From an uncultured Actinomycetes bacterium (GTDB lineage: Bacteria; Actinomycetota; UBA4738; HRBIN12), in NCBI GenBank assembly GCA_963821935.1, contig CAWGFM010000005.1, positions 453,129-517,128 on the forward strand: a stretch of DNA of 64,000 nt, in the 5' to 3' direction. The notes beneath the pieces were generated by a model. That model had not been told where the DNA came from, did not search any database, and saw nothing but the letters and a program-made list of their open reading frames with translations. The position numbers and the translations under genes were made by a program. How positions within the stretch are numbered: the stretch's first letter is position 1; every line of letters starts with the position of its first letter. Of the stretch, positions 29,162 to 57,170 are shown one piece after another.

Positions 29162-29194
29162 CGTTGCGGCGCACCGCGCCCGTACGCTGGGTCC

Positions 29195-30523: not shown

Positions 30524-30647
30524 GCCAGTCCTTTCGGCCCGCCTCGATGGTGCACCTGGGGGTTGACAACCGCTGAACGGTCAACCCAAGCTGGGTCTCC
30601 GCGCGCGGTCAGCCGATCGGCCGCGCATTCCGGAAGGGGAGGGCGCG

Positions 30648-35139: not shown

Positions 35140-35181
35140 GCCCTGACGTTACGGCGAACGCCAAGGGGAACCAAGCGAAGC

Positions 35182-35538
35182 TCAGCGTGCGACGACGACC
35201 TTGCCGCACATGCCCACGCACCTGCCGCCATCCAGCGAGCCATGGATCGTGCAGTAGAAGCGGAAGGTGCCTCGTGCGTTGAACACCCTGCGCACCGACT
35301 CGCCCTGCCGGATGGTCCGGCGGTACGACCAGTTGCTCCCGAGGGACTTCACCACGTGACCACGGACCACGGCCCTCCACCGCACGGCTTCGCCCCGGCT
35401 CACCGATGCCGACGCAGGACTCCAGCGCGTGCCCTCTCCGCGGATCACCTGCACCGCTGCGGCGGGGGTCGCGATCGCGAGCAGAGCGACCACCGTGACC
35501 ATGACCAGGACGTTTCGCCCCGTGCGCGCGATCGACAT
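35182..35538 (-). CDS. Secreted cupredoxin (plastocyanin/azurin-like blue copper protein)
   Basis: Signal peptide. Type-1 Cu ligands YCTIHGSL...MCGKVVV. Confidence 0.7.
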   Translation of the reverse strand: MSIARTGRNVLVMVTVVALLAIATPAAAVQVIRGEGTRWSPASASVSRGEAVRWRAVVRGHVVKSLGSNWSYRRTIRQGESVRRVFNARGTFRFYCTIHGSLDGGRCVGMCGKVVVAR

Positions 35539-35644
35539 GGACAGGACCTCCCTCGGGCGGCAGCGATCGGTTCCGTTGACGGTAGTACGGGTGGGCCGCC
35601 CGGTCAGCTTGCAGACAACGTTCGCCCTCGGCTAGCGTGCGCGG

Positions 35645-36115
35645 ATGGCCGCTGACGATGAACTGACGCCCGCGCTCTCCGAGGCTCGGCAGCGGCGCGC
35701 GACCCTGCACGACGCACTCGTGCATCTGGAGATCGCGATCTCCTCGCCCGCCGCCGGCCGCATCCCGGCGTGGACCGAGCTGGTCACCAAGGAGGTGGTC
35801 GGCGTCCGCGACGCCTTCGAGCAGCATGTGCTGGTGACGGAGAAGCCCGGCGGTCTCTACGAGGAGATCATCACGCGCGCGCCCCGCTTGGACGGCACGA
35901 TCCGCAAGCTCAAGGACGAGCATCCCGAGATCTCCGAGAAGGTCGATGTGATGGTCATGCGCCTCAACGAGGCGGAGATCGGCTCCCCCGCCTGGCCCTT
36001 GGAAGACGCCCGCGACGACCTGCAACGGTTCATCGGCACCGTGATCCGTCATCGACAGAAGGGCGCCGACCTTGTCTGGGAGGCCTACAACGTCGACATC
36101 GGCGGCACGGAGTAG
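35645..36115 (+). CDS. Hypothetical protein (156 aa)
   Basis: ORF with high-GC codon usage. No recognisable domain. Confidence 0.45.
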   Translation: MAADDELTPALSEARQRRATLHDALVHLEIAISSPAAGRIPAWTELVTKEVVGVRDAFEQHVLVTEKPGGLYEEIITRAPRLDGTIRKLKDEHPEISEKVDVMVMRLNEAEIGSPAWPLEDARDDLQRFIGTVIRHRQKGADLVWEAYNVDIGGTE

Positions 36116-36170
36116 CCCCACCCCCCCGTAGGTCGGGGCGTGCCCCCGGGCCACCGGTAGGCTTCCACCC

Positions 36171-37790
36171 GTGGCTCGCATCGCGCTCGGCCAGCTGAAC
36201 CTCACCGTCGGAGACCTCGCCGGCAACGTTGCGCGCATGGCTGAGGCCACGGAACGCGCCACCGAAGCCGGAGCCGATCTGATCGCGTTCCCCGAACTGG
36301 CGATCACCGGCTATCCACCCGAGGATCTCGTCCTGCGCGGCGAGTTCGTCAGCGAGAACCTGGACGCTCTGCAGGAGCTCGCCAACCGTACCGCGAGCGG
36401 CTGCGACGTCGTGACCGGCTTCGTCGATCGGACCGACGAAGGGATCCACAACGCTGCCGCCCTCCTTCGAGGAGGGGGCGTCGCGGCTCGCTATCACAAG
36501 ATGCAGCTCCCCAACTTCGGGGTGTTCGACGAGCGGCGCTACTTCACAGCCGGCACCGACGGCACCACCGTGGAGATCGGCGGAGAACGGGTCGGTCTCT
36601 CGGTGTGCGAAGACGCCTGGCACGATGGGTTGCCGTTCGCGAGGTACGCCGGACTCGGGATCATCGTGAACATCAACGGATCGCCGTATCACCGAGGCAA
36701 GACGGGCGAACGCGCCGACATCCTGGCTGCGCGTGCCCGGCAGACGGGCGCGTGGATCGTGTACGTGAACATGGTCGGCGGTCAGGACGAGCTGGTCTTC
36801 GACGGCGGGTCCATGGTGGTCTCACCCGACGGCGGGGTGCGGCATCGGGCCGCCATGTTCGACGAGGATGTGCTGCTGGTCGATCTGCACGGCAGCGCAT
36901 CGTTCGCCGATGACCGGCCGGCCTGGCCCACCGACGCCGCCGAGACCTACGGCGCGTTGCGACTGGGATTGCGCGACTACGTGCGCAAGAACGGGTTCAG
37001 CGATGTGGTGCTGGGACTGAGTGGAGGCATCGACTCAGCCCTGACGGCTACGCTGGCCGTGGACGCCCTCGGGCAGGATGCGGTCCGCGTGGTGGCGATG
37101 CCCTCGCCGTACTCATCGCCCGAGAGCGTGGAGGACGCGGTCGATTGCGCCGAACGGCTGGGCATCCGCCTCGACACGGTGCCGATCGAGAAGGTGTTCG
37201 ACGCATACCGATACGCCCTCGCCGAGCTCTTCGTCGGGCGTTCCGATGATGTCACCGAGGAGAACCTGCAGGCGAGGGTCCGCGGGAACCTGCTGATGGC
37301 GCTCTCCAACAAGTTCGGCTCGATCGTGCTCGCTCCCGGCAACAAGTCCGAGTACGCGGTGGGCTACTCGACGCTCTACGGCGACATGGCGGGGGGGTTC
37401 GCGCCGATCAAGGACGTGCCGAAGACGCTCGTCTACGAGCTGGCCGCCTGGCGCAACGGGAAGGCCGTCGCGGACGGCGACGCCCAGCCCATCCCCGAAC
37501 GCACGATGACGAAGCCCCCGAGCGCCGAGCTCCGGCCCGACCAGCAGGACACCGACTCGCTGCCCCCGTACGACGTACTCGACCCCGTGATCGAGGCGTA
37601 CGTGGAGGACGACCTGGGCATCGACGACATGGTGGCTCGCGGGATCGAACGCGCCCTCGCCGAACGCATCGTGGCCATGATCGACCGCAACGAATACAAG
37701 CGCCGCCAGGCGGCCCCCGGCGTGAAGATCACGCCCAAAGCTTTCGGGCGCGACCGGCGCATGCCCATCACGAATCATTACCCGGGCTGA
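36171..37790 (+). CDS. nadE: Glutamine-dependent NAD+ synthetase (N-terminal CN-hydrolase + C-terminal NAD synthetase)
   Basis: Nitrilase-type domain (FPELAITGY). PP-loop SGGIDS. Confidence 0.9.
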   Translation: MARIALGQLNLTVGDLAGNVARMAEATERATEAGADLIAFPELAITGYPPEDLVLRGEFVSENLDALQELANRTASGCDVVTGFVDRTDEGIHNAAALLRGGGVAARYHKMQLPNFGVFDERRYFTAGTDGTTVEIGGERVGLSVCEDAWHDGLPFARYAGLGIIVNINGSPYHRGKTGERADILAARARQTGAWIVYVNMVGGQDELVFDGGSMVVSPDGGVRHRAAMFDEDVLLVDLHGSASFADDRPAWPTDAAETYGALRLGLRDYVRKNGFSDVVLGLSGGIDSALTATLAVDALGQDAVRVVAMPSPYSSPESVEDAVDCAERLGIRLDTVPIEKVFDAYRYALAELFVGRSDDVTEENLQARVRGNLLMALSNKFGSIVLAPGNKSEYAVGYSTLYGDMAGGFAPIKDVPKTLVYELAAWRNGKAVADGDAQPIPERTMTKPPSAELRPDQQDTDSLPPYDVLDPVIEAYVEDDLGIDDMVARGIERALAERIVAMIDRNEYKRRQAAPGVKITPKAFGRDRRMPITNHYPG

Positions 37791-37818
37791 GGTGTCTGAC
37801 ACAATCCCGGGGCCGATC

Positions 37819-37893
37819 GGGCCCGTAGCTCAGCCAGGTTAGAGCAGGGGGCTTTTAACCCTCGTGTCGCAGGTTCGAATCCTGCCGGGCCCA
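37819..37893 (+). tRNA. tRNA-Lys (anticodon UUU)
   Basis: Cloverleaf folded by hand: acceptor GGGCCCG/CGGGCCC, D-arm GCTC..GAGC, anticodon stem GGGGG/CCCTC with loop CTTTTAA, T-loop TTCGAAT, discriminator A. Confidence 0.9.
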
Positions 37894-37941
37894 CCGACCC
37901 GATCCGAGCTGGTCGGAAGGACAGGACGATACATTGGCTGC

Positions 37942-39561
37942 ATGCCGAGGCAGTCCCACTCCGAAGACGTCATCGGCGATCCGTGGTGGCGTGGCGGGGT
38001 GCTCTATCAGATCTATCCGCGCTCATTCGCCGACGCGAGCGGCGACGGGATCGGTGACCTTCAAGGCGTGGTCGACCATCTGGACCATCTGTCGTGGCTC
38101 GGGGTCGACGGGATCTGGCTGAATCCGATTACCCCGTCACCGAACGCGGATTGGGGTTACGACGTCGCCGAATACACCGGGGTGGCTCCCGAATTCGGGG
38201 ACCTCGAGACCCTCGATCGCCTCGTGGATGAGGCCGGGGTCCGTGGGATCAAGGTGCTCCTGGACCTGGTCCCCAACCACACGAGCGACCGGCATCCGTG
38301 GTTCGTCGACAGCCGCTCGGACCGTTCGTCCGTTCATCGTGACTGGTACGTGTGGGCCGACGCCCAGCCGGGAGGAGGCCCGCCGAACAACTGGCGTTCG
38401 ATCTTCGGCGGCTCTGCATGGACCCTGGACGATCGCACCGGCCAGTACTACCTCCACAACTTCCTGCCCGAGCAACCCGACCTGAACTGGTGGCACCGGG
38501 ACGTGCGCGACGCGTTCGACTCGATCCTTCGATTCTGGCTCGATCGCGGGGTCGCAGGGTTCCGCATCGACGTGGCCCACGGCCTGGTCAAGGATGCCGA
38601 GCTCAGGGACAACCCTCCCGTCACCGACGATGACCCCCTCGAGATCCGCAACCAGGGGCCATTCCGGCCCGTGTACAACATGAACCGGCCGGAGGTGCAC
38701 GACGTTTTTCGCCGCTGGCGATCCCTCGCGAACCAGTACGACCCCCCGGGCGTGCTGATCGGCGAAACGTGGGTCCACGACCTCGATTCGCTCATGCGCT
38801 TCTACGGGAGCGATGACGAGTTGCAGCTGACGTTGAACGTCGCCTTCCTGTTCGCCGAGTTGGGGCCGGATATCCGAACGGTCGTGGAGACCGCCGAGGC
38901 GGCGCTCCCCGCGGGGGCCTGGCCGATGTGGAACGGGTCGAACCACGACGCGGGTCGGTTCCCCACCAGGTGGTGCGACGGTGACGAACGGCGCATCCGT
39001 GCGGCGCTCATGATGCTCCTGACGTTGCGTGGCACGCCCCTCCTGTACTTCGGAGACGAGGTCGGGATGGTGCAGATCGCCGTGCCCCTCGACCGATGGC
39101 GGGACCCGGTGGGACTGCGAGGTGAGCGCGGAGAACGGGGGCGGGACGGCGCACGGACGCCGATGCCGTGGACCGGCGGTCCGAACGGGGCATTCTCGCC
39201 TCCCGGCGTCGAGCCTTGGTTGCCGATCGGTGATCCAGGCGAGCTCAACGTCGAGTACCAGCGCGCAGACTCCGGATCGATCCTCCATCTGTGCCGCGAT
39301 CTGATCGCGCTGCGACGGGGGCGCGACGACCTGCGATCCGGAGGCTACGCCGCCGTCGACGTGTCCGGAGACGCCTGGGTGTTCGGACGGGGAGCCGAGA
39401 CGATCGTCGCACTCAACCTTTCGGAGGAAACCACGGTCGTGACGCTCGACCCAGGCCGGATCCTAGTCGGCACGGATCGCGGCCGCGATGGTGCATCCGT
39501 CGGATCGGACACCGCACTCGGAGCGTGGGAGGCCGTCGTCATGGAGCGAACCGGTTCCTGA
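37942..39561 (+). CDS. GH13 alpha-amylase-family glycoside hydrolase (alpha-glucosidase/oligo-1,6-glucosidase/trehalose-synthase-like)
   Basis: GH13 regions (DLVPNHTS, GFRIDVAHG, and a GETW-like block). Start trimmed to ATG 37942 so it does not overlap the tRNA. Confidence 0.8.
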   Translation: MPRQSHSEDVIGDPWWRGGVLYQIYPRSFADASGDGIGDLQGVVDHLDHLSWLGVDGIWLNPITPSPNADWGYDVAEYTGVAPEFGDLETLDRLVDEAGVRGIKVLLDLVPNHTSDRHPWFVDSRSDRSSVHRDWYVWADAQPGGGPPNNWRSIFGGSAWTLDDRTGQYYLHNFLPEQPDLNWWHRDVRDAFDSILRFWLDRGVAGFRIDVAHGLVKDAELRDNPPVTDDDPLEIRNQGPFRPVYNMNRPEVHDVFRRWRSLANQYDPPGVLIGETWVHDLDSLMRFYGSDDELQLTLNVAFLFAELGPDIRTVVETAEAALPAGAWPMWNGSNHDAGRFPTRWCDGDERRIRAALMMLLTLRGTPLLYFGDEVGMVQIAVPLDRWRDPVGLRGERGERGRDGARTPMPWTGGPNGAFSPPGVEPWLPIGDPGELNVEYQRADSGSILHLCRDLIALRRGRDDLRSGGYAAVDVSGDAWVFGRGAETIVALNLSEETTVVTLDPGRILVGTDRGRDGASVGSDTALGAWEAVVMERTGS

Positions 39562-39583
39562 GGCACCCGATCTCGCCGCCACC

Positions 39584-40159
39584 GTGAGCGGGACCCTCCT
39601 CGGACACCCCGCGGTGCACTCGGTCACGCTCGTGGGCTCGCGCGCTCGCGGTGATCCGTCCCCGCTCTCGGACTGGGACTTCTTGATCGCCACCGACGAC
39701 GCCCCTGCCGTGATCTCGGCGCTGCCGGCCCTCGTGATACCGCTCGATCCGATCGCTCAGCAGTGGGACCGGCTCGGCCCGACGACCTACCGGTGTTACA
39801 TGCTGATGCTGCGAGGTCCCATGAAGATCGACTTGATCCTTCCCGATGTGCCACACCGGCCCGCGCCCCGCTGGATCGCCACAGCCGAGGACCTCGAGGC
39901 GATCGACCACCACTTCTGGGACTGGATCCTGTGGATGGCGGCCAAGGAGCAGGGAGGCAAGCACGAGGTGGTCCATGAGCAGCTCGCCCTGATGAGCGAC
40001 CATCTGTTGCGTCCCATCGGCGTCGACGACGTTCCTCCGACGATCGCGCACGCGGTCGACGACTACATCGCGGCGCGGGATCGGCTGGCAGAGCGATACG
40101 GTGTTCGCGTGTCGCACCGGATCCAAGATGAGGTCAGGCCTGTCCTGCCCCGGACATGA
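39584..40159 (+). CDS. Nucleotidyltransferase-domain protein (minimal NTase, GS-x9-DxD)
   Basis: LVGSRARGDPSPLSDWDFLI. Start uncertain. Confidence 0.55.
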   Translation: MSGTLLGHPAVHSVTLVGSRARGDPSPLSDWDFLIATDDAPAVISALPALVIPLDPIAQQWDRLGPTTYRCYMLMLRGPMKIDLILPDVPHRPAPRWIATAEDLEAIDHHFWDWILWMAAKEQGGKHEVVHEQLALMSDHLLRPIGVDDVPPTIAHAVDDYIAARDRLAERYGVRVSHRIQDEVRPVLPRT

Positions 40160-40222
40160 TCGACTCGACCGCGGGACCGTTCCTAGAGTTGAATGTGGAG
40201 ATGCATCGCTGAGGAGGGGCCC

Positions 40223-41443
40223 GTGGCTGAGATCGTGATGGATGAAGTCTCCAAGGTGTTCGCCGATGGGACGAGGGCCGTTTCCGACCTCGAGCTGGAG
40301 ATCGACGACGGCGAGTTCATCGTCCTGGTGGGGCCATCCGGCTGCGGCAAGACGACGGCGCTGCGCATGGTCGCGGGCCTGGAAGCCATCAGCCAGGGCA
40401 CGATCCGGATCGGCGATCGCGTCGTGAACGACGTGCCCCCGAAGGAGCGGGACATCGCGATGGTCTTCCAGAACTACGCCTTGTATCCGCACATGTCGGT
40501 GTACGACAACATGGCGTTCGGCTTGAAGCTGCGGAAGCTGTCCAAGCAGGAGATCGACCGACGGGTCCGACGCGCCGCCGACATCCTCGGGCTCGACGAG
40601 CTCCTCGAGCGCAAGCCGAAGGCCCTGTCGGGTGGACAGCGGCAGCGTGTCGCGATGGGCAGGGCAATCGTTCGGGAGCCGAAGGCGTTCCTGATGGACG
40701 AGCCGCTGTCGAACCTCGACGCGAAGCTACGCGTGCAGATGCGCACGGAGATCGCGCGGATTCAACACGATCTGGCGGTCACGACGATCTACGTCACGCA
40801 CGATCAGGTCGAGGCGATGACGATGGGTGATCGGGTGGCCGTGATCCGCAAGGGGGTATTGCAGCAGGTCGACACCCCACAGTTCCTGTACGACCACCCC
40901 AAGAACCTGTTCGTCGCCGGGTTCATCGGCTCTCCAGCGATGAACATGGTGGAGGCCACCTTCACGCGGTCGAACGGGTCCGCGTTCGTCGAGTTCGGCG
41001 GCACCCACCTCGCGGTCCCACGCGAGGTCCTCGACGAACGACCGGACCTCGGGGAGTTCGATGGAAGGCAGGTGATCGTGGGGCTGCGGCCCGAAGACAT
41101 CGAGGACGCTTCCATCGCTACGGACGCGGGACCGGATCGAACGATCCGATCCGAGGTGGCGCTCAGCGAGGCCCTCGGAGCCGATGTCCTCGTGCATTTC
41201 TTCGTGCAGGCGCCCACCGTGATGACCGACGACGTGAGAGAGCTCGCTCATGATGTCGGTCAGGAGGCGTTGGACGCCGTCGAGCTCGGGGCCCGATCGG
41301 GGCAGTCGAAGTTCGTCGCACGTCTGAACCCGCGTACCAACGCCGCCAAGGGCCAGCCGATCGAACTCGTGGTCGATGCCCGCCGCCTCCATTTCTTCGA
41401 TCCCGACTCCGGGATGGCGGTCTACGGGGGCGAGCGGAGCTGA
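40223..41443 (+). CDS. Sugar ABC transporter ATP-binding protein (MsiK/MalK/UgpC family)
   Basis: Walker [10 protein letters not shown], signature LSGGQRQR, Walker [12 protein letters not shown], plus a C-terminal TOBE regulatory domain. Confidence 0.9.
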
Positions 41444-41484
41444 GTGCCACGGGGGGAGCCGGGTCCTCATTCCCCAGCGGGTTC

Positions 41485-42822
41485 TTGTGGGGCACCGCGA
41501 CGTCGGCTTACCAGGTCGAAGGTGCGGTCAACGAGGACGGGCGAGGCCCGTCGATCTGGGACACGTTCTGTCGGAGGCCGGGCGCGATCCGCGATGGGAG
41601 CACCGGCGATGTCGCGTGCGACCAGTACCACCGGTTCCAGAACGACATCGCGTTGATGAGCGAGCTCGGCATCGGCGCGTACCGATTCTCCGTGTCATGG
41701 CCGCGGGTCCAACCCCAGGGGCGCGGCCCGGCCGAGCAACGGGGGCTCGACCACTACCGGAAGCTGGTCGACGCCCTCCTTTCCCACGGCATCACCCCGG
41801 TTCCCACGCTCTTCCATTGGGACCTTCCGCAAGCCCTGGAGGACGCGGGAGGGTGGCCGGCCCGGCGCACCGCCGACCGGTTCGCCGACTACGCGGCGAT
41901 CGTCGGCGAGGCGCTGGGCGACGTGATGCCGATGTGGCTCACGATCAATGAACCGATGGTGGCCGCCTGGCTCGGCTACGCGCACGGGGTCCACGCGCCG
42001 GGACGCCGAGACGAACGTGCAGCACTCGCGGCCACCCATCACCTGCTCCTGGCCCATGGCCGAGCGGTCGAGGCGCTTCGGTCCGTGGCGACGGGACCGA
42101 TCGGGCTCGCGCTGAACCTCTACCCGTGCCGGCCGGCCAGCGACTCGCCCGAAGATGAGCGGGCCGCCGATCTGGCCGACCAGCAGCTCAACCGCCTCTA
42201 CCTCGATCCGATCTTCGGCCGGGGCTATCCGCCCGGACCCCTCCAGGGAGCCGAGCTCCTGTTCCTCCGCGACGGCGACCTGGATGAGATCGCGCGACCG
42301 GTCGACTTCCTGGGCGTGAACTACTACTCGGTCCACACGATCACCGGAAGCCCCCCAACGAGATCACGTCCGAGCGAGCTGCCCGATTCACTCGACGCCT
42401 GGGTCGTGACGCCTCCCGGGACCGACGTCACGATGCTCGGATGGCCGATCGAGCCCGACGGTCTCACCGAGATGCTCGTGCGGGTCCACCGAGAGTACGG
42501 ACCCGAGCGGCTCTACGTCACGGAGAACGGCGCCGCGTTCCACGATCCGCCGCCGGTCGACGGAACCATCCACGACGATGCTCGGATCGCGTACATCGAT
42601 GCGCACGTCGAGGCGATGCGGGCGGCGATCGATGCCGACGTTCCACTGGCCGGGTATCTGGTCTGGTCGTTGCTGGACAACTTCGAGTGGGCGGAAGGCT
42701 ATGAAACTCGCTTCGGCCTCGTCCACGTGGACTTCCAGACGCAAAAGCGAACGTGCAAGGACAGCGCTCGATGGTACGGCGACCTGATCCGCGCGAACGG
42801 CGCTCGCGTCCCCGCCGGCTGA
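41485..42822 (+). CDS. GH1 beta-glucosidase
   Basis: TATSAYQVEG, TINEP (acid/base Glu) and YVTENG (nucleophile Glu). The conserved FPSGFLWG lies upstream of the first canonical start (TTG 41485), so the true start may be CTG 41440. Confidence 0.8.
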   Translation: MWGTATSAYQVEGAVNEDGRGPSIWDTFCRRPGAIRDGSTGDVACDQYHRFQNDIALMSELGIGAYRFSVSWPRVQPQGRGPAEQRGLDHYRKLVDALLSHGITPVPTLFHWDLPQALEDAGGWPARRTADRFADYAAIVGEALGDVMPMWLTINEPMVAAWLGYAHGVHAPGRRDERAALAATHHLLLAHGRAVEALRSVATGPIGLALNLYPCRPASDSPEDERAADLADQQLNRLYLDPIFGRGYPPGPLQGAELLFLRDGDLDEIARPVDFLGVNYYSVHTITGSPPTRSRPSELPDSLDAWVVTPPGTDVTMLGWPIEPDGLTEMLVRVHREYGPERLYVTENGAAFHDPPPVDGTIHDDARIAYIDAHVEAMRAAIDADVPLAGYLVWSLLDNFEWAEGYETRFGLVHVDFQTQKRTCKDSARWYGDLIRANGARVPAG

Positions 42823-42913
42823 TCCGGCCACTCCCACCTGCCTTGACAGGCTCCCGAGGGTCTGACTAGGTTCGCTCCGAAAACGTTTCCGGAATCCCGG
42901 AGGAGGGCGCGCC

Positions 42914-43960
42914 ATCGCGACGATCCGAGACCTCGCCGAGCAGCTCGGGGTGTCCGTCGCCACGGTCTCTCGGGTCCTGAACGACTACCCCGACGTCGCT
43001 CCGCACACGAGGGCTCGCGTCCTCGCGGGCATCCGCGAGCACGACTTCGCGCCGGCTCGTGCCGCGAGAACCTTGGTGACCGGTCGCACCGAGCTGATCG
43101 GCGTGATCCTGGAGACGGGAGTGGGGCACCCCGACCTGCAGCACCCGTTCTTCCAGGAGGTGCTCGTCGGCCTCAAGCACACGGTCGGCGACGTCGGCTA
43201 CGACCTGCTGCTCTTCAGTGTCGAGTCCGCGCACAACGGGGGCGGCGCCCACCGATACCTCGCCCGGGCGCGACAGCACCGTGTCGACGGCATGATCGTG
43301 ATGGGAGCCGACCGGCACGACCCGCAGGTAGTGGAGCTGGCCGCCTCCGGGATCCCGACGATCGCTGTCGATCTCGACCTCGAGGGCAGCCGGTGTGGGT
43401 GCGTGACCTCCGACAACGCACACGGTGCGGCGCTCGCCGTGTGTCACCTCGCGGAGCTCGGGCACCGGCGGATCGCCATGATCGGCGGACCGGAGGAGAC
43501 CAAGGCCGGGTTCGATCGCACGAGCGGATACCGACTCGGGCTCGAGCGCGCCGGCCTCGAACGCCGGGCCGAGTACGAGCGGGTGGGGGACTTCTACCCC
43601 GAGAGCGCCCGGACCCAGATGGCGGAGCTGCTCGACCTGCCCGAGCCGCCCACCGCGGTCTTCGCGGCGGCCGACCTCATGGCCGTCGGTGCGATCCAGG
43701 CGCTCTGGGACCGCGGCTTGAGCTGTCCCGACGATCTTTCGGTGGTCGGGTTCGACGACGTCCAGATCGCGCGGCTGCTCCGTCCGACGATCAGCACCAT
43801 CCGGCAGGACAAGACCGCGCTGGGCGCGACGGCGGGCGACGCACTCGTTCGGATGATCGTCGATCCGGAGTTCGCGCCACTGACGGAGATCGTGCCCGTC
43901 GATCTGGTGGTGAGGGAGTCATCAGGTCGATGCGATGTCGTTGCAGGGCCGCAGTCATGA
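42914..43960 (+). CDS. LacI-family transcriptional regulator
   Basis: [25 protein letters not shown] plus a periplasmic-binding-like sugar domain. No canonical start covers the HTH. RBS GGAGGAG sits 9 nt before an in-frame ATC at 42914; the first canonical start is GTG 42950, inside the HTH. Confidence 0.7.
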
Positions 43961-44053
43961 AGGCCGTCGGCGAGGGAGGGAGGAGCTTGTTGAGTTGACC
44001 GGAACCGGAACCTGTGGAAGGAATAGAGGATCGGAAGAGAGGGAGGGACGAAG

Positions 44054-45382
44054 ATGAGTCGACTCCGGATGATCGTGCCTGTCATCGTGTTCGTCATGGT
44101 CGCGGCGGCCTGCGCCGGGGAAGATGAGCCCGACTCGACCGAGACCGACGCGCCCAGCGCGAGCGGTCAATTGGAGGACACGGGCAACGTGAACCTCCTC
44201 AGTGCGGGTGAACCGGAAGAGGTAGCGGCGTATCAAGAGATCTTCGACGAGCTGATCAACGCGGATGCTGACTACAACGCCGAAGTCGAGTCTTCGGGCA
44301 ACTTCGAGGAGCAGTTCCAGATCCGGGCCGAAGGCGGGACCCTCGACCTGGCGGCGGTGCCCCAGCCCGGCGCCATCCCCGCGCTGGTCGACGCCGGCTC
44401 TCTGACCTCGCTCGAGGACATGGGATTCGACATCGCCGAGCTGAACTCGCTGCTCGGTGAGTCGTTCGTGGAGCTCGGTGAGTACCAAGGCGAGCACTAC
44501 GGCCTGCCCACGAACATCAACCTGAAGAGCATGGTCTGGTATCCGAAGGACGACTTCGACAAGGCCGGGTACGAGGTCCCCACCACGTGGGACGAGATGA
44601 TCGCGCTCAGCGACCAGATCGTGGCGGACGGGGGCACGCCATGGTGTGTCGGCTTCAAGAGCGAAGGTTCCACGGGTTGGCCGGCCACTGACTGGATGGA
44701 AGACATCATGCTCAGGACGGCCGGCCCTGACGTATATGACCAGTGGTATGCGCATGAGATCCCCTTCAATGACCCGGCAGTGCTGAACGCCGCCCAGACG
44801 TTCGGCGACGTGTTGTTCAAGGAGGGGTACGTGCTGGGTGGGGCCGACGCGACCTCGGATATCGAATTCGGTGACGCGCCGCTGCCGATGTTCGAGAACC
44901 CGCCGAAGTGCTGGCTACACCGCCAGGCGAGCTTCATCAACGCCTTCTTCCCCGAGAACACGGTCGCCGGCGAGGACTACGACTGGTTCCCGCTCCCGCC
45001 GATCGATCAGGAGGGGACCCTCTACGCGGGTGAGCTGACGGTGGTGGGCACGAACGGGAACCGGCCCGAGGTCAAGGACTTCCTCGACCAGTTCGTCGAC
45101 CAGGAGGTCCAATGCGCGATGGGCGGCGTCCAGCTGTCGTCCCGGATCTCGCCGAACGTCAACGTCGGACCAGACTGCTACGTGAACGACATCCTCGCCG
45201 ACGCATCGGTGATCCTCACCGAGTCGCTCACGTCGGGGACGGGGCGATTCGACGCCTCGGACCTGATGCCGGCGGAGGTCGGAAGCGGCTCGTTCTGGAA
45301 CGGCATGGTGCAATACACGGAGGAGGGGCCGGACAGCGCACAGGACGTCCTCGACGAGATCGAGTCCAGCTGGCCAGCCTGA
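44054..45382 (+). CDS. Sugar ABC transporter substrate-binding lipoprotein
   Basis: Signal peptide plus lipobox (VAAACAG). SBP family 1 sugar-binding fold. Confidence 0.8.
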
Positions 45383-45475
45383 GAGCCGGCGACTACGCTC
45401 GGATGACATGTCGGAAGGGGCGGCCGTCAGGCGGCCGCTCCTTCGCCTCGACGACGACCGGAGGGTGTCGATCGC

Positions 45476-46621
45476 GTGAGTGATCCGGCCGCGGGCCCAA
45501 CTGCTGGCGCCCCTGCCCTCCCGCCGGCCTCGGTGCCCCACGTCATCGGGAGCTGGGTGCTGCGGGTCGCCGCAGCGCTCGCGATCCCGGTCGTCGCGTT
45601 CTTCCTCCTGTCCGCCACGTTCCAGTTCCTCCGCGACGAGGACGCGAACCGCGGCCTCGTTGTCCTCGTCGCGATCCTCGTCGGGGTCGTGGGAGTCTTC
45701 GCGCTGTACTGGGCGACGAACAAAGTCGCGGATCTACTTCCCGGTCGGTTCCGCGAGGGCGTGCGTCCGTGGATCTTCGTAGGGCCCGCCCTGGTCATCC
45801 TGAGCGTCTTCCTCGTGTACCCCCTGATCAACACCGTCATGCTCAGCCTGCAGGACGCCCAAGGCCAAGAGTTCGTGGGGCTCGACAACTTCAGTTTCGT
45901 CTTCTCCGACGAGCACATGCTGCGGTCCCTCCGCAACACGGCGGGGTGGGTCATCCTCGTACCGCTGTTCGCGGTGAGCATCGGTCTCTCGTTCGCGACG
46001 CTGGCCGATCGGCTCCGTCGGGGTGAGGGTGTCGCGAAGTCGATGATCTTCCTGCCGATGGCGATCTCGTTCGTCGGCGCGGCCGTCACCTGGCGACTCA
46101 TCTACAGCTTCCGGCCGGAGGGGTTCGGCACGAACATCGGGCTCTTGAATGGCATCATGCAGGGGCTCGGTCAGGAACCCGTGTCCTGGCTCGGCCTGCA
46201 GCCGTGGAACAACCTCTTCCTGATGGTGATCATGGTGTGGATCCAGACGGGGTTCGCGATGGTGGTCTTGTCCGCCGCCATCAAGTCGATCCCCGACGAG
46301 ATCGTGGAGGCGGCGCGCATCGACGGGGCCTCCGAGTGGCAGGTGTTCCGGCGGATCCTCGTGCCCAGCATCTGGCCCACGATCGTCGTCGTGACGACGT
46401 ACATGGTCATCAACTCGCTGAAGATCTTCGACATCGTCTTCGTGATGGGCAACGCCGAGAACGACGGCACGGAGGTCATCGCGCAGCAGATGATCCGGTG
46501 GTTCTTCCTCCTCAACAACAACGGCCATGCGGCGGCCATCGCCGTCGTGCTGTTCATCGCCATCATCCCCGTCATGGTGTGGAACATCCGACGCTTCCGC
46601 GAAGAGGAGGCGCTCCGATGA
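45476..46621 (+). CDS. Sugar ABC transporter permease (MalF/UgpA-like)
   Basis: Six TM segments. EAA-loop region (IDGASEWQVFRRILVP). Confidence 0.8.
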   Translation: MSDPAAGPTAGAPALPPASVPHVIGSWVLRVAAALAIPVVAFFLLSATFQFLRDEDANRGLVVLVAILVGVVGVFALYWATNKVADLLPGRFREGVRPWIFVGPALVILSVFLVYPLINTVMLSLQDAQGQEFVGLDNFSFVFSDEHMLRSLRNTAGWVILVPLFAVSIGLSFATLADRLRRGEGVAKSMIFLPMAISFVGAAVTWRLIYSFRPEGFGTNIGLLNGIMQGLGQEPVSWLGLQPWNNLFLMVIMVWIQTGFAMVVLSAAIKSIPDEIVEAARIDGASEWQVFRRILVPSIWPTIVVVTTYMVINSLKIFDIVFVMGNAENDGTEVIAQQMIRWFFLLNNNGHAAAIAVVLFIAIIPVMVWNIRRFREEEALR

Positions 46622-47565
46622 GCTCGTCGGAGGTCACGGGGTCCTCGCCGGCCGTGCGACCGGCGGGAGGAGCCACCGTGAAGGAGGGGCGCCGCGGGAG
46701 CTGGTTCGTCCGCATCACGGTGCTCGTCATCGTCCTCCTGTGGCTGATCCCTACCGTCGGCGTGCTCATCACCTCGTTCCGACCCGAGGACCTCGTGGAA
46801 TCCACGGGCTGGTGGACGGTGCTCGCGCACCCGTTCCAGGACGCGGCGTGGACCCTGGAGAACTACCGGACGGCGCTTTCGGCGGAAGGGTTCGGGAACG
46901 CCTTCCTCAACAGCCTGGCGGTGACGATCCCCGCCACGGTGATCCCCATCACCATCGCGGCGTTCGCCGCCTACGCCTTCTGCTGGATGGAGTTCAGGGG
47001 ACGGTACGTGCTCTTCGTGGTCGTGGTGGGACTCCTGGTCGTGCCGTTGCAGATGTCACTGATCCCGATCCTGCGTCTCTACGTCGAAGGGGCCGAGCTG
47101 GGCCCGTTCCAACTCTTCCCGGATCTCGATCTGAACGGCACGTTCCTGGGGATCTGGCTCGCCCACGCCGGGTTCGGCCTCCCGTTGGCGATCTACCTGC
47201 TTGCGAACTACATGCGATCACTGCCGTCGTCGATCATCGAGTCGGCGAAGATCGATGGAGCCGACCACTTCACGATCTTCCGGCGGCTCGTGGTCCCGCT
47301 GTCGGTTCCCGCGCTGGCAGCCTTCGCGATCTTCCAGTTCCTGTGGGTCTGGAACGACCTCCTGGTCGCGTACGTGCTCCTTGGTGGAACGCGGGAGACC
47401 AGGGTCCTGACGATCGCGCTCCAGAACCTCGTGGGGTCCCGCGGCGAGAGCTGGCACCTGCTGACCTCGGCCGCGTTCATCACGATGCTGCTGCCGCTCG
47501 TGGTGTTCTTCTCGCTCCAGAAGTACTTCGTGCGGGGGCTCACCGCCGGCTCGGTGAAGGGCTGA
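46618..47565 (+). CDS. Sugar ABC transporter permease (MalG/UgpE-like)
   Basis: ATGA overlap with the upstream permease. EAA loop (IDGADHFTIFRRLVVP). Confidence 0.8.
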   Translation: MSSSEVTGSSPAVRPAGGATVKEGRRGSWFVRITVLVIVLLWLIPTVGVLITSFRPEDLVESTGWWTVLAHPFQDAAWTLENYRTALSAEGFGNAFLNSLAVTIPATVIPITIAAFAAYAFCWMEFRGRYVLFVVVVGLLVVPLQMSLIPILRLYVEGAELGPFQLFPDLDLNGTFLGIWLAHAGFGLPLAIYLLANYMRSLPSSIIESAKIDGADHFTIFRRLVVPLSVPALAAFAIFQFLWVWNDLLVAYVLLGGTRETRVLTIALQNLVGSRGESWHLLTSAAFITMLLPLVVFFSLQKYFVRGLTAGSVKG

Positions 47566-47568
47566 TCG

Positions 47569-48144
47569 GTGGAACGGCTTCGGCGCCGACCGTCCGCGGG
47601 TCTGCAGCCGATCACGCCTCGCGTGAAGTGGCGGGCGATCCTCCTCGCCACCCTGCTGCTGCTTCCCGCCTATTGGTCGGTGCTCGCCGGCGTGGTGGCC
47701 GTGGCCTCCGACGACGACGTCGGACGTGTCCCCGGCCCGCTGATCGCCTTCGGGCTCTGCCTCGTACCGTTCATCTTCATCGTGCTCGCCATGGGGTCGC
47801 AGCACCCTCGGGTACCAAGCGCGGTGCTGAAGGCCATGGTCTTGACGCTCGTCGTCGGGATCCCGGTCTCGGCGCTGGCGGCGGACGCGGCGACTGGCCT
47901 GGTCGCCGGCATCGGAGCGGGGGGCATCGTCGCGCTCCGTTCGGATCTCCATCACCCTACGAGGGCGCGGGTCGTCGCCGTGCTCGTCGTCACCGTGTGG
48001 GTGTTCGTCACGCTCCGCCTCGTGCCCGAGGCGGCCCTGATCATCGCCCCCATCCTCCCCTTCACGACACTCGGGGTCGCGGATCACGTGTCCGAACGGA
48101 AGGCGGAGCTGCGTGAGTCGGACGCGACCCGACAGAACCTTTAG
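47569..48144 (+). CDS. Hypothetical membrane protein
   Basis: Five to six hydrophobic helices. GTG start. Confidence 0.45.
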   Translation: MERLRRRPSAGLQPITPRVKWRAILLATLLLLPAYWSVLAGVVAVASDDDVGRVPGPLIAFGLCLVPFIFIVLAMGSQHPRVPSAVLKAMVLTLVVGIPVSALAADAATGLVAGIGAGGIVALRSDLHHPTRARVVAVLVVTVWVFVTLRLVPEAALIIAPILPFTTLGVADHVSERKAELRESDATRQNL

Positions 48145-48584
48145 AGGTTCCTAATTCGTGTGCGGACGCCCGCGTTGCCCGACGAAGGGTCGCCCGCATG
48201 AGTTCGTTCCTGTATCGGCTCGGCCCATCGGCTGCTCGCCGCCGCTGGCTCACCCTCGGGATCTGTTCGTCGCCGTCTTCGCGATCCCGCCGTCGGCAAC
48301 GCGCTCGGTGGTAGCCCGCCGACGATTTCAAATGCCGAACTCTGGTCATCGCGATGTGCATCATCCGCACCGCGGCCTAACGTCGCGCACACCTCGCAGG
48401 TACTCTCGCGTCCGTGTCGTCGACGACGCCCGGGAGCCGCCACTCCCGTGTCGAGCCCACCCTGTGTCGACCGAGAATCGCTCTCGTTTCGTCCCGCATC
48501 GGTCCCGCGTCGCCCTGAGAAACGCTGCGAAACGTCGGGTTGTGTCAAGTGTGCGAACGCGCAGGTCAGGAGGGTACAGCCTCT

Positions 48585-48623
48585 TGGCCTCGTCGCAGGT
48601 TCGAATCCCTGCCCGGGCCCACA
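48585..48623 (+). pseudogene. tRNA-Lys 3'-half remnant (variable loop/T-arm/acceptor 3' strand; putative attR)
   Basis: About 85% identical to the 3' 38 nt of the intact tRNA-Lys. T-loop expanded to 8 nt. No complementary 5' acceptor strand exists upstream. Confidence 0.6.
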
Positions 48624-48724
48624 AAGGAGAGGGACCAGGGCCATCGTGGGGCGATGTTCAACATCGACGTCGCTTCCGGTGCCCTCCTCGTCAGGCCGCC
48701 GAGAACCCCGCTGATGAGTCAGGG

Positions 48725-48901
48725 TTAGCGCCTTCGGCGCAGGAGCACGAAGATCACCACGACGACGATCGCGACGATCACGACCGCCGAGAAGCCCGTC
48801 AACAAGCTGTCGTTGTTGCCCTCACCGTCGTTGCCGCACGCAGACAGCAGGAGCCCCGTCGCGGCCATGGACGCGAAGGTCAGGCGTTTCCGAACGTTCA
48901 T
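48725..48901 (-). CDS. Mini-protein (58 aa): lipobox-like N-terminus (LSACGN) and C-terminal hydrophobic anchor + RRRR tail
   Basis: ORF MNVRKRLTFASMAATGLLLSACGNDGEGNNDSLLTGFSAVVIVAIVVVVIFVLLRRRR. Could be spurious. Confidence 0.3.
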   Translation of the reverse strand: MNVRKRLTFASMAATGLLLSACGNDGEGNNDSLLTGFSAVVIVAIVVVVIFVLLRRRR

Positions 48902-49044
48902 TTCCGAACTCCACTTCCTCGACGACCGGTAGCGACATCGTTCGACATCGTCACATTCCCTGCTACCCAGCACCTCACGACCGAAACCCGAATTGTCTCG
49001 CCTGATAGGAGGCCTCCTTCCCTCGCCGGTAGAGTGGGCCGGAC

Positions 49045-49503
49045 ATGGCGACGACGGTCACGATCGAAGGACAGGGCTACCGCAAGCGCGAGCCACTAGG
49101 CGTGCTGGGCCTGTCGTTCATCACGCTGGGGATCTACTTCCTCTACTGGTACTACAAGATCAACGACGAGATCAGGCGTTTCGAGCACGACGATTCGATC
49201 AGTCCTAGTCGCTCGCTCATGGCCTTGCTGTTCGGCTGGATCATCATCGTGCCGCCGTTCATCGCGATGTACAACACGGCCAAACACGTCCGCACGATCG
49301 AGGAGCGCATGGGGATCACGTCTCAGCTCGAGCCAGCGCTGGTGATCGTGATCATGGTGCTGGTCACCATCGGCAACGGGCTCTACATCCAGGAACACCT
49401 GAACGGGGTCTGGGATCGGTCCACGACAGTTGCTCCCGCTCCTCCGTTGCTTCCCTCGGCAGGAACGGTCCCGCCACCGATGCCGACCCCGCCTGCCAGC
49501 TAG
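49045..49503 (+). CDS. DUF4234-family membrane protein
   Basis: GYRKREPLGVLGLSFITLGIYFLYWYYKIN signature. Lower-GC neighbourhood. Confidence 0.6.
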   Translation: MATTVTIEGQGYRKREPLGVLGLSFITLGIYFLYWYYKINDEIRRFEHDDSISPSRSLMALLFGWIIIVPPFIAMYNTAKHVRTIEERMGITSQLEPALVIVIMVLVTIGNGLYIQEHLNGVWDRSTTVAPAPPLLPSAGTVPPPMPTPPAS

Positions 49504-49552
49504 TCCTCCTTCACGATCCCCGTCCGTCGGTGGGGGCCGGTAGCCTGCGTCC

Positions 49553-49894
49553 GTGCGAACGGCACGCTTCGAGGGACCACGCGGTTCGGATTGGACACTC
49601 GACGTGCCGACCTCCCGCCGAGAACGCGTCCGGGGACTCCGCGACCATCGAGTGCTCACACCCTGCCGCGGCATGCTCTTCTTGCGATGCCGATCCGTGC
49701 ACACGTTCGGGATGACCATGGAGATCTCGGTGGTGATGCTCGACGACGACCTCACCGTGCGAGGGGTGCGGGCGATGCCGCCTAAGCGTGTGCTGGTGCC
49801 GCGCCTGGGAACCAGACACCTGGTGGAGTGCGCCCCCGATCAGCGGATCGTCATCGGCGACCGGTTCGTGCCTCGTGATGGAAGCGAGGTGTGA
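49553..49894 (+). CDS. DUF192-family protein
   Basis: TPCRGMLFLRCRSVHTFGM resembles the DUF192/COG1430 core. Confidence 0.5.
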   Translation: MRTARFEGPRGSDWTLDVPTSRRERVRGLRDHRVLTPCRGMLFLRCRSVHTFGMTMEISVVMLDDDLTVRGVRAMPPKRVLVPRLGTRHLVECAPDQRIVIGDRFVPRDGSEV

Positions 49895-49925
49895 GGGACA
49901 CCGGGGGGAAGCCGCCGGCGGCGGC

Positions 49926-50093
49926 TCAGACCATCGCGGCGATGAGCACGCGCAGGGCCACTCCCAGCGCCGTCGTCGTGAGGGCGATGATCGCCGCCAC
50001 GACGTAGGGCGCCCATGCGGGCACGGCGACTGGCTCCTTGCGAGCCGGGTCCGGACCCACCAGACCGAGCAACTCCAACATCGTGCGCATCAT
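49926..50093 (-). CDS. Small membrane protein (55 aa), hypothetical
   Basis: Start trimmed to clear tRNA-Glu. Single TM helix. Confidence 0.3.
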   Translation of the reverse strand: MMRTMLELLGLVGPDPARKEPVAVPAWAPYVVAAIIALTTTALGVALRVLIAAMV

Positions 50094-50183
50094 GCCCTGT
50101 GTTCGGCCTCGAACCCGCTCCGGTTGAGCCCCATCGCTATACTCTGTCGGCTGCCCCTGGTGGCCGGTACGCTGCGGGCGCAC

Positions 50184-50256
50184 GCCCCCATCGTCTAGCG
50201 GCCTAGGACGCCGCCCTTTCAAGGCGGAAGCACGGGTTCGAATCCCGTTGGGGGCA
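50184..50256 (+). tRNA. tRNA-Glu (anticodon UUC)
   Basis: Acceptor GCCCCCA/TGGGGGC, anticodon stem CCGCC/GGCGG with loop CTTTCAA, T-loop TTCGAAT, short variable loop. Confidence 0.9.
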
Positions 50257-50294
50257 CGGCACCGACGCACCATCGGATCCACGACATAGCACGT

Positions 50295-50373
50295 GCGCCC
50301 GTAGAGGAGTCCGGCCGTCCTCACCTCCCTGTCAAGGAGGAGATCGCGGGATCGAAGCCCGTCGGGCGCGCCA
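50295..50373 (+). tRNA. tRNA-Asp (anticodon GUC) with encoded CCA, unusual 11-nt D-loop and non-canonical T-loop ATCGAAG
   Basis: Acceptor GCGCCCG/CGGGCGC, anticodon stem CCTCC/GGAGG with loop CTGTCAA, discriminator G followed by CCA. Confidence 0.65.
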
Positions 50374-50399
50374 TCACAGCACCAGCCCTATCCTGAGGG

Positions 50400-51146
50400 A
50401 TGGTCGAGGTCAGCGACGCCCACGACGAACTCACGGCGAAGCGGTTCATCGAGCGGCTGACGCCGCTGGGTTCGCCCGAGAGCGTGAAAGCAGCGAAGCG
50501 CTATCTCACGGCCGGTGCCACAGCGCGAGCGGATCTCGACATCGCCATCGGCGCTCGCATGCGCGACGTCTTCGGGCTGGCGAAGGAATGCACCGACATG
50601 CCACTGGGCCAGGTGTCGATCCTGCTGGAGAGCCCGGTGCACGAGGTGCGTGTCGGCGCGGTGAGCATCATGGACTTCCAAGCGCGCCGCACGAAGACCC
50701 CAGCGAAGCGGCGCAAGGAGCTGTTCGACCTCTACATCGGTCGCCACGACCGGATCAACACCTGGGATCTGGTGGATCGAAGCGCTCCGTACGTGGTCGG
50801 GGGGTACCTCTTCGACAAGCCACGCACGATCCTCTACGAGCTGGCCCGATCCCCGGTCATGTGCGAGCGCAGGACCGCGATCGTCGCGACCTACTACTTC
50901 ATCCGGCACGACGACACCGCCGACACGTTCAGGATCGCGGAGTTGCTCGTCGATGACGACGAGGACCTCATCCACAAGGCTGTCGGTGGATGGGTGCGTG
51001 AGGCCGGAAAGCGAGACCCTGACGGACTGCTCGACTTCCTGAACCGTTTCGCCGCGACGATGCCGCGGACGGCCCTTCGCTATGCCGTCGAGCATCTCGA
51101 CCAGGCCCAGCGTGCCCACTACATGGGTTTGCGCGCCGCGACCTAG
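50400..51146 (+). CDS. DNA alkylation repair protein (AlkD/AlkC-like HEAT-repeat glycosylase family)
   Basis: Family resemblance (KRFIERLTPLGSPESVKAAKRY..., WDLVDRSAPYVVG, HKAVGGWVREAG). Confidence 0.65.
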   Translation: MVEVSDAHDELTAKRFIERLTPLGSPESVKAAKRYLTAGATARADLDIAIGARMRDVFGLAKECTDMPLGQVSILLESPVHEVRVGAVSIMDFQARRTKTPAKRRKELFDLYIGRHDRINTWDLVDRSAPYVVGGYLFDKPRTILYELARSPVMCERRTAIVATYYFIRHDDTADTFRIAELLVDDDEDLIHKAVGGWVREAGKRDPDGLLDFLNRFAATMPRTALRYAVEHLDQAQRAHYMGLRAAT

Positions 51147-51217
51147 GATCCTTCGTGGGTACCATGTTCGCGTCATCGACCCCGGCGGGACTGGGTCGCT
51201 ACACTCAGACGTGGCAG

Positions 51218-51290
51218 GGCCAGGTAGCTCAGTTGGTAGAGCACGCGGCTGAAAACCGCGGTGTCGGCAGTTCGATCCTGCCCCTGGCCA
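51218..51290 (+). tRNA. tRNA-Phe (anticodon GAA)
   Basis: Acceptor GGCCAGG/CCTGGCC, D-arm GCTCAGTTGGTAGAGC, anticodon loop CTGAAAA, T-loop TTCGATC. Confidence 0.9.
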
Positions 51291-51293
51291 CCG

Positions 51294-52100: not shown

Positions 52101-52224
52101 GGTGGTCTCCGAGTCTACGTCGGACCGGCCGGGGCGGGCCCCGGCCCACCTGTTGACCGGAGCGAGGCCAAGGCCCGCCTCGGCCTCTTCCGTATGCTCT
52201 CGGCGTCCGAGCGGAGGAACTCGA

Positions 52225-56267: not shown

Positions 56268-56409
56268 AGCGCCCGACGCGACCCGCCGTCTCGTGCCCGA
56301 ACCTATGCATGAATCCGCGCGGTCGATCCGGTGCCGTGACCTGGCCTAACCCGTATCACCAAGGCCGGGTCGAGGGGATCCGGCCGAAAGGCAACAGGGA
56401 GGGATAGCC

Positions 56410-57117: not shown

Positions 57118-57140
57118 CCAGGCCATCACGCGAGTCGAAC

Positions 57141-57170
57141 GGAGAGCCGGCCGCCTCGCGCGGCCGGCTC
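57141..57170 (+). terminator. Hairpin GAGCCGGCCGC-ctcgc-GCGGCCGGCTC downstream of the DUF4397 gene
   Basis: 11-bp perfect GC stem. Confidence 0.55.

Follow-up and report, generated by a model that had tools for sequence, protein, structure and literature searches.

The window analysed here is a stretch of 64,000 nucleotides from a contig (CAWGFM010000005.1) of an uncultured Actinomycetes bacterium. Within it, a 10.7-kb segment begins directly behind an intact tRNA-Lys(UUU) gene and ends at a degenerate copy of the 3' part of that same gene. An earlier reading of this DNA, made from its letters alone (the original prediction), had described the segment as a relic integrative island that carries nine genes for sugar utilisation: a GH13 hydrolase, a nucleotidyltransferase (NTase)-like protein, an MsiK-like ATPase, a GH1 beta-glucosidase, a LacI regulator, a solute-binding protein (SBP), two permeases and a membrane protein. 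This gene list agrees with Pfam and NCBIfam. The tRNA-Glu, tRNA-Asp and tRNA-Phe genes announced beyond the fragment are likewise found by ARAGORN and Rfam; the former calls four tRNAs in the window, and the latter gives Lys, Glu and Phe at 67-70 bits. Table 1 lists the features of the locus.

Table 1. Features of the tRNA-Lys(UUU) locus, with positions in the window.
Feature	Position	Strand	Evidence or remark
tRNA-Lys(UUU), intact	37819-37895	+	ARAGORN; attL role together with the junction
Left direct-repeat copy	37859-37894	+	Covers tRNA positions ~40-74: begins in the anticodon stem (3' strand) and ends one C past the discriminator
Left junction and operon leader	37896-37941	+	Empty-site homology ends at 37897; homology to the L167 copy starts at 37903
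GH13 alpha-glucosidase-type hydrolase, 539 aa	37942-39561	+	Pfam Alpha-amylase (9e-111) and DUF3459
NTase-like protein, 191 aa	39584-40159	+	Weak NTP_transf_2 and Polbeta matches (Pfam)
MsiK/UgpC/MalK-type ABC ATPase, 406 aa	40223-41443	+	ABC_tran and OB_MalK; UgpC subfamily, 470 bits vs cut-off of 432
GH1 beta-glucosidase, 445 aa	41485-42822	+	Pfam 9e-151; TIGR03356 equivalog, 578 bits vs cut-off of 478.5
LacI-family regulator	42950-43960	+	Pfam LacI and Peripla_BP_3
Sugar ABC SBP	44054-45382	+	SBP_bac_1, SBP_bac_8 (Pfam)
ABC permease 1	45476-46621	+	BPD_transp_1 (Pfam)
ABC permease 2	46618-47565	+	BPD_transp_1 (Pfam); gene called in L084 and L085
Conserved uncharacterised membrane protein, ~190 aa	47569-48144	+	Always the last gene, directly after permease 2
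Intergenic region and 5' stub of an MMPL-family gene	48163-48342	+	blastn vs L168 10626-10809, 76.8%
Orphan non-coding DNA, ~245 bp	48343-48587	.	P-arm side of attR under the integration model
Right direct-repeat copy, attR-like: degenerate 3' fragment of tRNA-Lys(UUU), 35 nt	48588-48622	+	Alignment
Original downstream flank of the tRNA	48623-48724	+	Homologous, with indels, to the 35 nt after tRNA-Lys in the empty site
Small hydrophobic open reading frame (ORF), 58-82 aa	48725-48973	-	In occupied and empty sites; called in L081, L084 and L085; GC at third codon positions (GC3) 0.83
DUF4234 protein, conserved right-flank marker	49045-49503	+	Pfam 2.8e-13; 97% aa identity in L081
tRNA-Glu(UUC)	50184-50257	+	ARAGORN, Rfam; with tRNA-Asp marks the right end of the variable interval
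tRNA-Asp(GUC)	50295-50373 (ARAGORN; 50295-50370 also given)	+	Rfam 50 bits, local scan
tRNA-Phe(GAA)	51218-51292		ARAGORN, Rfam

The tRNA-Lys gene is intact, as predicted: Rfam matches it at 37819-37893 with 69.5 bits, and its sequence is 100% identical in three of the relatives discussed below (L081, L084 and L085). The 3' fragment had been placed at 48585-48623, and alignment moves its ends by 1-3 nt. It reads CCTC--GTCGCAGGTTCGAAT(C)CCTG(C)CCGGGCCCAC and lies in the same orientation as the tRNA, from which it differs by three indels and not a single substitution; one single-nucleotide polymorphism separates it from L084 and L085. The local alignment scores 26, while the best of 20,000 random 65-mers of the window reaches 16 (mean 7.2, standard deviation 1.45). 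The original prediction had allowed for descent from another isoacceptor, but the fragment is of the UUU type and the tRNA-Lys(CUU) of relatives fits it worse. Specifically, the tRNA-Lys(CUU) genes that follow the operon in two distant relatives (L116 and L128) are ruled out as its source, their T-arm being different (GCAGGTTCGAATCCTGC vs CGGGGTTCAAGTCCCCG). None of the other tRNAs has a partial copy in the window. The fragment was also expected to score as a pseudo or partial tRNA, yet ARAGORN makes no call and Rfam finds no tRNA there at E<=10. A structured-RNA role of the region finds no backing either in its fold (z-score -0.97) or in Rfam.

Could the fragment be what is left of a second, full-length tRNA-Lys(UUU), a tandem or segmental duplicate, so that the operon would lie between two former tRNA-Lys genes? 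The 32 nt that precede it are weakly collinear with tRNA positions 1-41, and over positions 6-27, the D-arm, 17 of 22 nucleotides match. This resemblance is not significant (p ~0.085), since an anchored alignment of tRNA positions 1-41 is equalled or beaten at 8.5% of random genomic positions, and the statement that no 5' half lies upstream thus stands. Uniform pseudogene decay would hardly leave zero substitutions in the 3' part next to ~65% identity in the 5' part, and besides the lack of an Rfam tRNA at this position, no examined relative carries a second tRNA-Lys(UUU) at the locus. We therefore regard a decayed duplicate as quite improbable.

Further evidence comes from relatives. These were fetched as contigs that encode selected homologues of NadE, whose gene precedes tRNA-Lys, and later as contigs with homologues of the membrane protein; they are denoted by L numbers. 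The NadE protein search places the window in a lineage of uncultured Actinomycetota represented by metagenomes only, and in a NadE scan of genome collections the relatives among the matches listed show at most 67% identity. For the DNA-alkylation-repair protein of the window, an exact look-up gives no record. One metagenomic contig of 1.31 Mb from ENA (L081) stands out with a NadE that is 99% identical in amino acids and with both flanks 96-98% identical to the window in nucleotides. Its order is nadE, tRNA-Lys, the 58-aa ORF (on the minus strand), DUF4234, tRNA-Glu, tRNA-Asp, an alkylation-repair gene and tRNA-Phe, and the sugar genes are absent from this place. BLAST aligns window 26205-37897 with L081 1-11727 and window 48713-58595 with L081 11749-21620, which leaves 10.8 kb extra in the window at the tRNA-Lys site. 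A site without the 10-kb block, which the original prediction had proposed to look for in related genomes, therefore exists, and it is exact. The left breakpoint lies 2-4 nt past the tRNA end and the right one at the fragment. Moreover, the bases that follow the fragment, AAAGGAGAGGGACC, match those that follow the tRNA in L081, CGAAGGAGATCTGGACC; read further, the window's CAAAGGAGAGGGACC... is homologous to CCGAAGGAGATCTGGACC... of L081, and a 40-nt alignment of fragment plus flank with L081 (90%, E 3e-5) crosses the tRNA end. The fragment and its flank therefore read as the displaced original 3' end of the gene together with its original downstream DNA, a layout such as an attR site should show.

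The occupied arrangement recurs at 99.5-99.7% identity in L084 and L085, two assemblies of long reads that come from different samples. In Logan, two short-read contigs, available as gene calls and not as DNA, agree with the window in gene order (membrane-protein gene, spacer ORF, 58-aa ORF, cut 71-aa ORF) and in the spacing of 583 bp over the right junction. With identical junctions in L084 and L085 and a matching order in Logan, the arrangement is not an assembly artefact. A mis-join might otherwise have been suspected, as the source is a long-read metagenome assembly and three of the fetched contigs (L082, L086 and L087) contain many frameshifts; likewise, a 35-nt match could in principle be due to chance. 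The alignment score lies far above the random maximum, however, and the homology of the flank to the empty site is independent support, so that we find either explanation barely credible. Taken together, the comparisons support the view that tRNA and 3' fragment form a real direct repeat bounding a strain-variable segment.

What does this segment carry? The operon has the components of a Ceb/MsiK-type beta-glucoside ABC uptake operon, namely LacI, SBP, two permeases, GH1 and a MalK-type ATPase, and would by sequence belong to that type. The core order of ATPase, GH1, LacI (not always present), SBP, two permeases and membrane protein is found in 79 JGI metagenome loci and in L087, in unrelated genomic contexts, with varying positions of the GH13 and NTase-like genes. 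The GH13 protein, whose gene is also called in L084, matches NCBIfam models only below their equivalog cut-offs. For the NTase-like protein an N-terminal MntA-like match (2.7e-4) likewise falls below the NCBIfam cut-off; its gene is kept in the operon across the lineage (L082, L087, L098, L099, L108, L113, L120, L143 and L163). The membrane protein falls outside the families of Pfam and NCBIfam and counts 785 homologues; an alignment of 22 sequences contains 48 invariant columns, with motifs that include KWRAI, IAFGL, HP, DA.TG.VAG.GAGG and LPF...G..DH; it may be an accessory subunit of the ABC transporter. Several operon-region genes (GH1, LacI, SBP, MsiK, MMPL) are often split or frameshifted in L082, L086, L087 and L168, most likely through long-read assembly errors in low-coverage contigs rather than as real pseudogenes.

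In composition the operon resembles its surroundings. GC3 is 0.83-0.92 in its nine genes vs 0.84-0.87 in those for NadE, DUF4234 and the alkylation-repair protein, and GC shows a slight dip from 0.67-0.73 in the flanks to 0.64-0.69 in the segment. Plasmid matches to the segment are confined to a generic ABC ATPase. Neither the atypical composition nor the mobility genes of a horizontally acquired island were found, and the cargo is a conserved chromosomal operon native to this lineage of uncultured soil Actinomycetota, not foreign DNA. The operon is also repeatedly found next to tRNA genes: in more distant relatives an intact tRNA-Lys(CUU) lies 50-90 bp past its last gene (L116 1263-1339 and L128 2735-2811), and in L115 a tRNA-Ala(GGC) does so at the same distance (10609-10682).

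The genome with the empty site does hold the operon, only elsewhere. About 94 kb from the empty tRNA-Lys site, on the same contig, all nine genes lie between a methyltransferase gene and a Peptidase_S51 gene (L167 273-10502). This copy is 93% identical in nucleotides to window 37903-48124. Gene by gene the two copies are 84-99% identical, which makes them two- to four-fold more diverged than the host backbones (96-98%), and both are equidistant from the operon of a more distant relative, L168. The split between the copies therefore predates that between the two host genomes, which means either that the operon was exchanged laterally with a sister lineage or that old paralogues were lost reciprocally. 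The mosaic of identity among the transporter genes was considered as a trace of recent recombination and rejected, since these genes also rank as the best conserved whichever pair is compared, distant pairs included. The RibD_C protein encoded just downstream of the L167 operon clusters with no other protein at the 90% level, a hint that variability extends to this region. A further paralogous context, L171, is non-syntenic.

A third contig touches on both positions. L086 (1-10322; ENA ERZ25039576 contig_103280) opens exactly with the counterpart of window 37896, the base immediately behind tRNA-Lys-CC, and over its initial 7 nt it agrees with the window junction. Yet the operon that it contains is of the L167 type (98%), and the 68 bp at its end are the right flank of that same type. 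A match of this tail to the region of the 58-aa ORF in the window was ruled out, since the local alignment is no better than with shuffled sequences. L086 is probably a branch of the assembly graph, which would place the operon in two contexts within that sample. In the window, L167 and L086, the operon's left ends agree within 5-7 nt.

Further relatives show how the surrounding interval varies. In the contig L082 and its continuation L168 (NadE 83%), tRNA-Lys is followed by DUF4234, the operon, an MMPL-family gene, a stretch X homologous to window 49552-49956, and tRNA-Glu. The order in the window is tRNA-Lys, operon, MMPL stub, 3' fragment, 58-aa ORF, DUF4234, X and tRNA-Glu, so that DUF4234 lies to the left of the operon in L082/L168 and to its right in the window. 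In L083 (NadE 81%) six unrelated genes occupy the interval, and L169 (NadE 84%) lacks a tRNA-Lys after nadE. The interval from tRNA-Lys to tRNA-Glu thus behaves as a variable hotspot. In the empty site the two tRNA genes are already 1,491 bp apart, with the 58-aa ORF and DUF4234 between them, and the proposal that an element split a Lys-Glu-Asp tRNA cluster was accordingly overstated. Two observations on the neighbourhood may be added. In the tRNA-Asp(GUC) the D-loop is enlarged and the T-loop is unusual in that it reads GGGAUCGAAGCCC in place of GGUUCGAAUCC; a whole-window Rfam scan at the gathering threshold misses this tRNA, and ARAGORN calls a tRNA-Asp of 79 nt at the corresponding position in L081, L084 and L085. 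Upstream of nadE lies a large signalling protein of ~1,260-1,285 aa with Guanylate_cyc, AAA_16 and TPR domains (31282-35139, minus strand); precomputed Pfam annotation shows it to be conserved in L081, L082 and L169.

The comparison with L168 also identifies part of the spacer between membrane-protein gene and fragment, in which (48145-48584) the original prediction had suspected a decayed integrase. Homology to L168 runs on beyond the stop codon of the membrane-protein gene up to 48342. In L168 an MMPL-family gene follows the operon at 10661-12837, intact apart from a probable frameshift split; in the window it starts with an ATG at 48198 and is cut off after ~50 codons. Window 48198-48263 encodes MSSFLYRLGPSAARRRWLTLGI, which matches the MMPL N-terminus at 18 of 22 residues (tblastn 8e-8, L168). 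The first ~200 bp of the spacer are therefore intergenic sequence followed by a truncated MMPL gene. The remaining 48343-48587 has no homologue in any fetched locus and no phage match, six-frame Pfam and PHROGs scans of 48145-48724 are empty, and the spacer shows no coding periodicity. An integrase remnant is thus not borne out, while the accompanying statement that no integrase is left in the segment fits the ORFs, which are assigned to other families or to none, as well as the empty scans. The spacer also holds local repeats: between 48412 and 48534, CCGTGTCG occurs twice and CTGTGTCG once, and there are tandem repeats of an 11-mer, GTCCCGC(A/G)TCG, and of a 10-mer, CTG(A/C)GAAACG, twice each. 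The motif CGTGTCG is present in the variable loop of the tRNA-Lys as well. The GTGTCG-type cluster was considered as a set of integrase arm sites and rejected, as CCNGTGTCG occurs 5 times in the window vs 7.6 expected and is not above chance.

How did the repeat come about? The account that we tentatively favour, with slightly less than even confidence, is an old integrase-type recombination at tRNA-Lys(UUU) that left attL-like and attR-like junctions. The repeat runs from exactly 3' of the anticodon loop to the tRNA's 3' end and the original flank sits on the distal copy, which makes it the standard product of a tyrosine integrase that recombines an attP site with a tRNA gene. The geometry thus matches the predicted integration at the 3' end of tRNA-Lys, with the crossover centred on the anticodon loop. 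No tDNA-island layout is commoner: among the islands found by Islander, 2083 of 3919 have an anticodon-centred attP site, and in 3760 of 3919 a 3' fragment lies displaced downstream in the same orientation (PMC4383910). Actinobacterial integrative and conjugative elements (AICEs) and others from actinobacteria also integrate at tRNA 3' ends through short identity segments (PMC2440964).

In such a scenario a circular DNA with a copy of the stretch of tRNA between anticodon loop and 3' end would have recombined with the chromosomal gene. A working tRNA would thereby have been regenerated beside the incoming DNA, and the original 3' part with its downstream flank displaced by 10.7 kb. The recombinase would most likely have been a tyrosine integrase of the anticodon-centred class. 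Its gene would have lain on DNA that was later deleted, or at another place in the cell from which it acted in trans; loss by deletion would agree with an MMPL gene that is truncated and with the 245 bp of orphan DNA. The displaced fragment would since have acquired its three indels, and the segment would now be fixed, with no recombinase present. With a native operon, the MMPL stub and no mobile backbone, the cargo would be chromosomal DNA from a related strain, and a matching attP would be expected to carry CCTCGTGTCGCAGGTTCGAATCCTGCCGGGCCCACC without the tRNA 5' half. Two parts of this account are inferred, namely the role of an integrase in making the repeat and the direction of the event, insertion and not the reverse. 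Compared with the relic island of the original prediction, the repeat, the polymorphism and the UUU-type fragment remain; integrase debris, alien cargo and a split cluster do not.

Several results weigh against an integration event. The composition is native and the operon belongs to the chromosomes of the whole lineage; genes for integrase, excisionase, replication or transfer are found neither in the segment nor within ~10 kb on either side. That all three differences of the fragment are indels is odd for simple neutral decay. The L167 copy has no tRNA-like sequence at either end, and the operon itself therefore carries no attP. An element with a matching attP was not found: a scan of viral contigs with the 29-nt 3' end of the tRNA returned only tRNA-Met(CAU) genes and a few fragments on unrelated low-GC contigs. 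Within that scan, the 29-nt segment of T-arm and acceptor 3' strand is identical in the tRNA-Met(CAU) of about half of 22 unrelated IMG/VR contigs (L172-L193); in most of the remaining ones it lies outside ARAGORN-called tRNAs among phage tRNA arrays, and in L175, L177 and L189 no called tRNA is found within 3 kb of it. Finally, the outgroup L082/L168 has operon and MMPL gene in the same interval, and the window and L167 copies are equidistant from it, so that by parsimony an ancestral presence is favoured, with L081 as a deletion. The shared interval and MMPL neighbour argue either that the operon is old at the locus or that a donor had that arrangement.

This last point leads to the main alternative: an operon that was ancestral in the interval, a repeat formed with no integrase involved, and, in L081, an empty site due to a later repeat-mediated deletion. 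The repeat might then stem from a tandem duplication with its left breakpoint within the tRNA gene and subsequent deletions, or from a Campbell-type homologous integration of a circularised chromosomal fragment that starts inside the tRNA. Beyond the outgroup arrangement, the retained MMPL stub, the equidistance of the copies and the missing mobility genes, it can draw on the fact that window and L082 are about equally similar in the operon (~73-87%) and in the flanks (79-84%), and the deletion in L081 would have been tolerated because of the second operon copy in that genome. Yet about three events would be needed to shift DUF4234 across the operon and to make the repeat, and neither the start of the repeat at the anticodon stem-loop nor the end of the attL homology at the tRNA 3' end is explained. 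In addition, the flank on the side of the fragment differs from L081 by indels of 11, 15 and 35 nt vs a backbone identity of 96-98%; being far more diverged than the backbone, it indicates that any deletion was not recent. We see this course of events as possible but rather unlikely.

An improbable variant of mobility is that the operon is a discrete, integrase-less cassette, moved between sites and strains by a recombinase acting in trans, for which the 3' end of tRNA-Lys(UUU) would be one landing site. A cassette akin to a cis-mobilisable element (CIME) would fit because the same left terminus is found three times, the copies are more diverged than the backbones, and an att-like repeat is present at one site. 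Mechanisms outside those considered here retain a small chance.

All in all, the locus is a relic tRNA-flanked islet without an integrase, a real and fairly ordinary strain-variable insertion of a known kind. What is mildly unusual is its lineage-native catabolic cargo, and the presence of the same operon at different loci in genomes whose flanks are 96-98% identical. It provides a precisely mapped case of a core-type sugar operon that differs in chromosomal position, with one position bearing a tRNA attL/attR scar and no mobility genes. For island finders it holds a caution: the signature of a tRNA plus its fragment can enclose native-looking, integrase-free cargo, and an "empty" site is not the same as a strain without the genes. 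The locus opens no long-standing question; it is chiefly of use for getting the annotation right and as a starting point for studying operon relocation in this clade at the population level.

Several known systems share features with this locus. CIMEs, described in streptococci, are att-flanked segments without recombination or conjugation genes of their own that have intact att sites and are mobilised by a cognate integrative and conjugative element. The segment resembles them in that attL/attR-like repeats flank DNA without its own integrase or transfer genes, and differs in an attR with three indels. Hotspots of horizontal gene transfer that lie beside tRNA genes on chromosomes, many of them without mobile-element genes, have reportedly been described by Oliveira et al. 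in 2017. The interval between nadE/tRNA-Lys and tRNA-Glu/Asp is similar in that it has different gene sets in the window, L081, L082 and L083; however, homologous recombination in the flanks alone does not duplicate a tRNA 3' fragment.

The closest geometric counterpart would be the tDNA islands of Islander (Hudson, Lau & Williams 2015, PMC4383910), with an intact tRNA, a displaced 3' fragment in the same orientation at a canonical sublocation and a strain-variable segment. As in its site A type, the fragment spans the anticodon region to the 3' end and a close relative, here L081, has the empty attB. In contrast, the tyrosine integrase gene inside the island, which Islander uses as a required filter, is missing here, as are phage and conjugation genes; the attR is degenerate, and the cargo is a catabolic operon of native composition with the stub of a chromosomal neighbour. 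AICEs are comparable in their actinobacterial hosts, their size of 10-20 kb and their integration at tRNA 3' ends via an identity segment that keeps the tRNA functional, and AICE remnants of determinable size still keep their integrase (PMC2440964). Their int/xis, replication, FtsK-like Tra and Kor/Pra modules have no counterpart here in Pfam or NCBIfam, not even as relics.

The cargo has its own well-known counterpart. In Streptomyces, cebR-cebEFG-bglC is the cellobiose system and is served by the shared ATPase MsiK. Like it, the operon combines a LacI regulator, an SBP, two permeases and a GH1 beta-glucosidase with a MalK/MsiK-type ATPase; unlike it, the operon in the window contains the ATPase gene itself and adds a GH13 hydrolase, an NTase-like protein and the conserved membrane protein.

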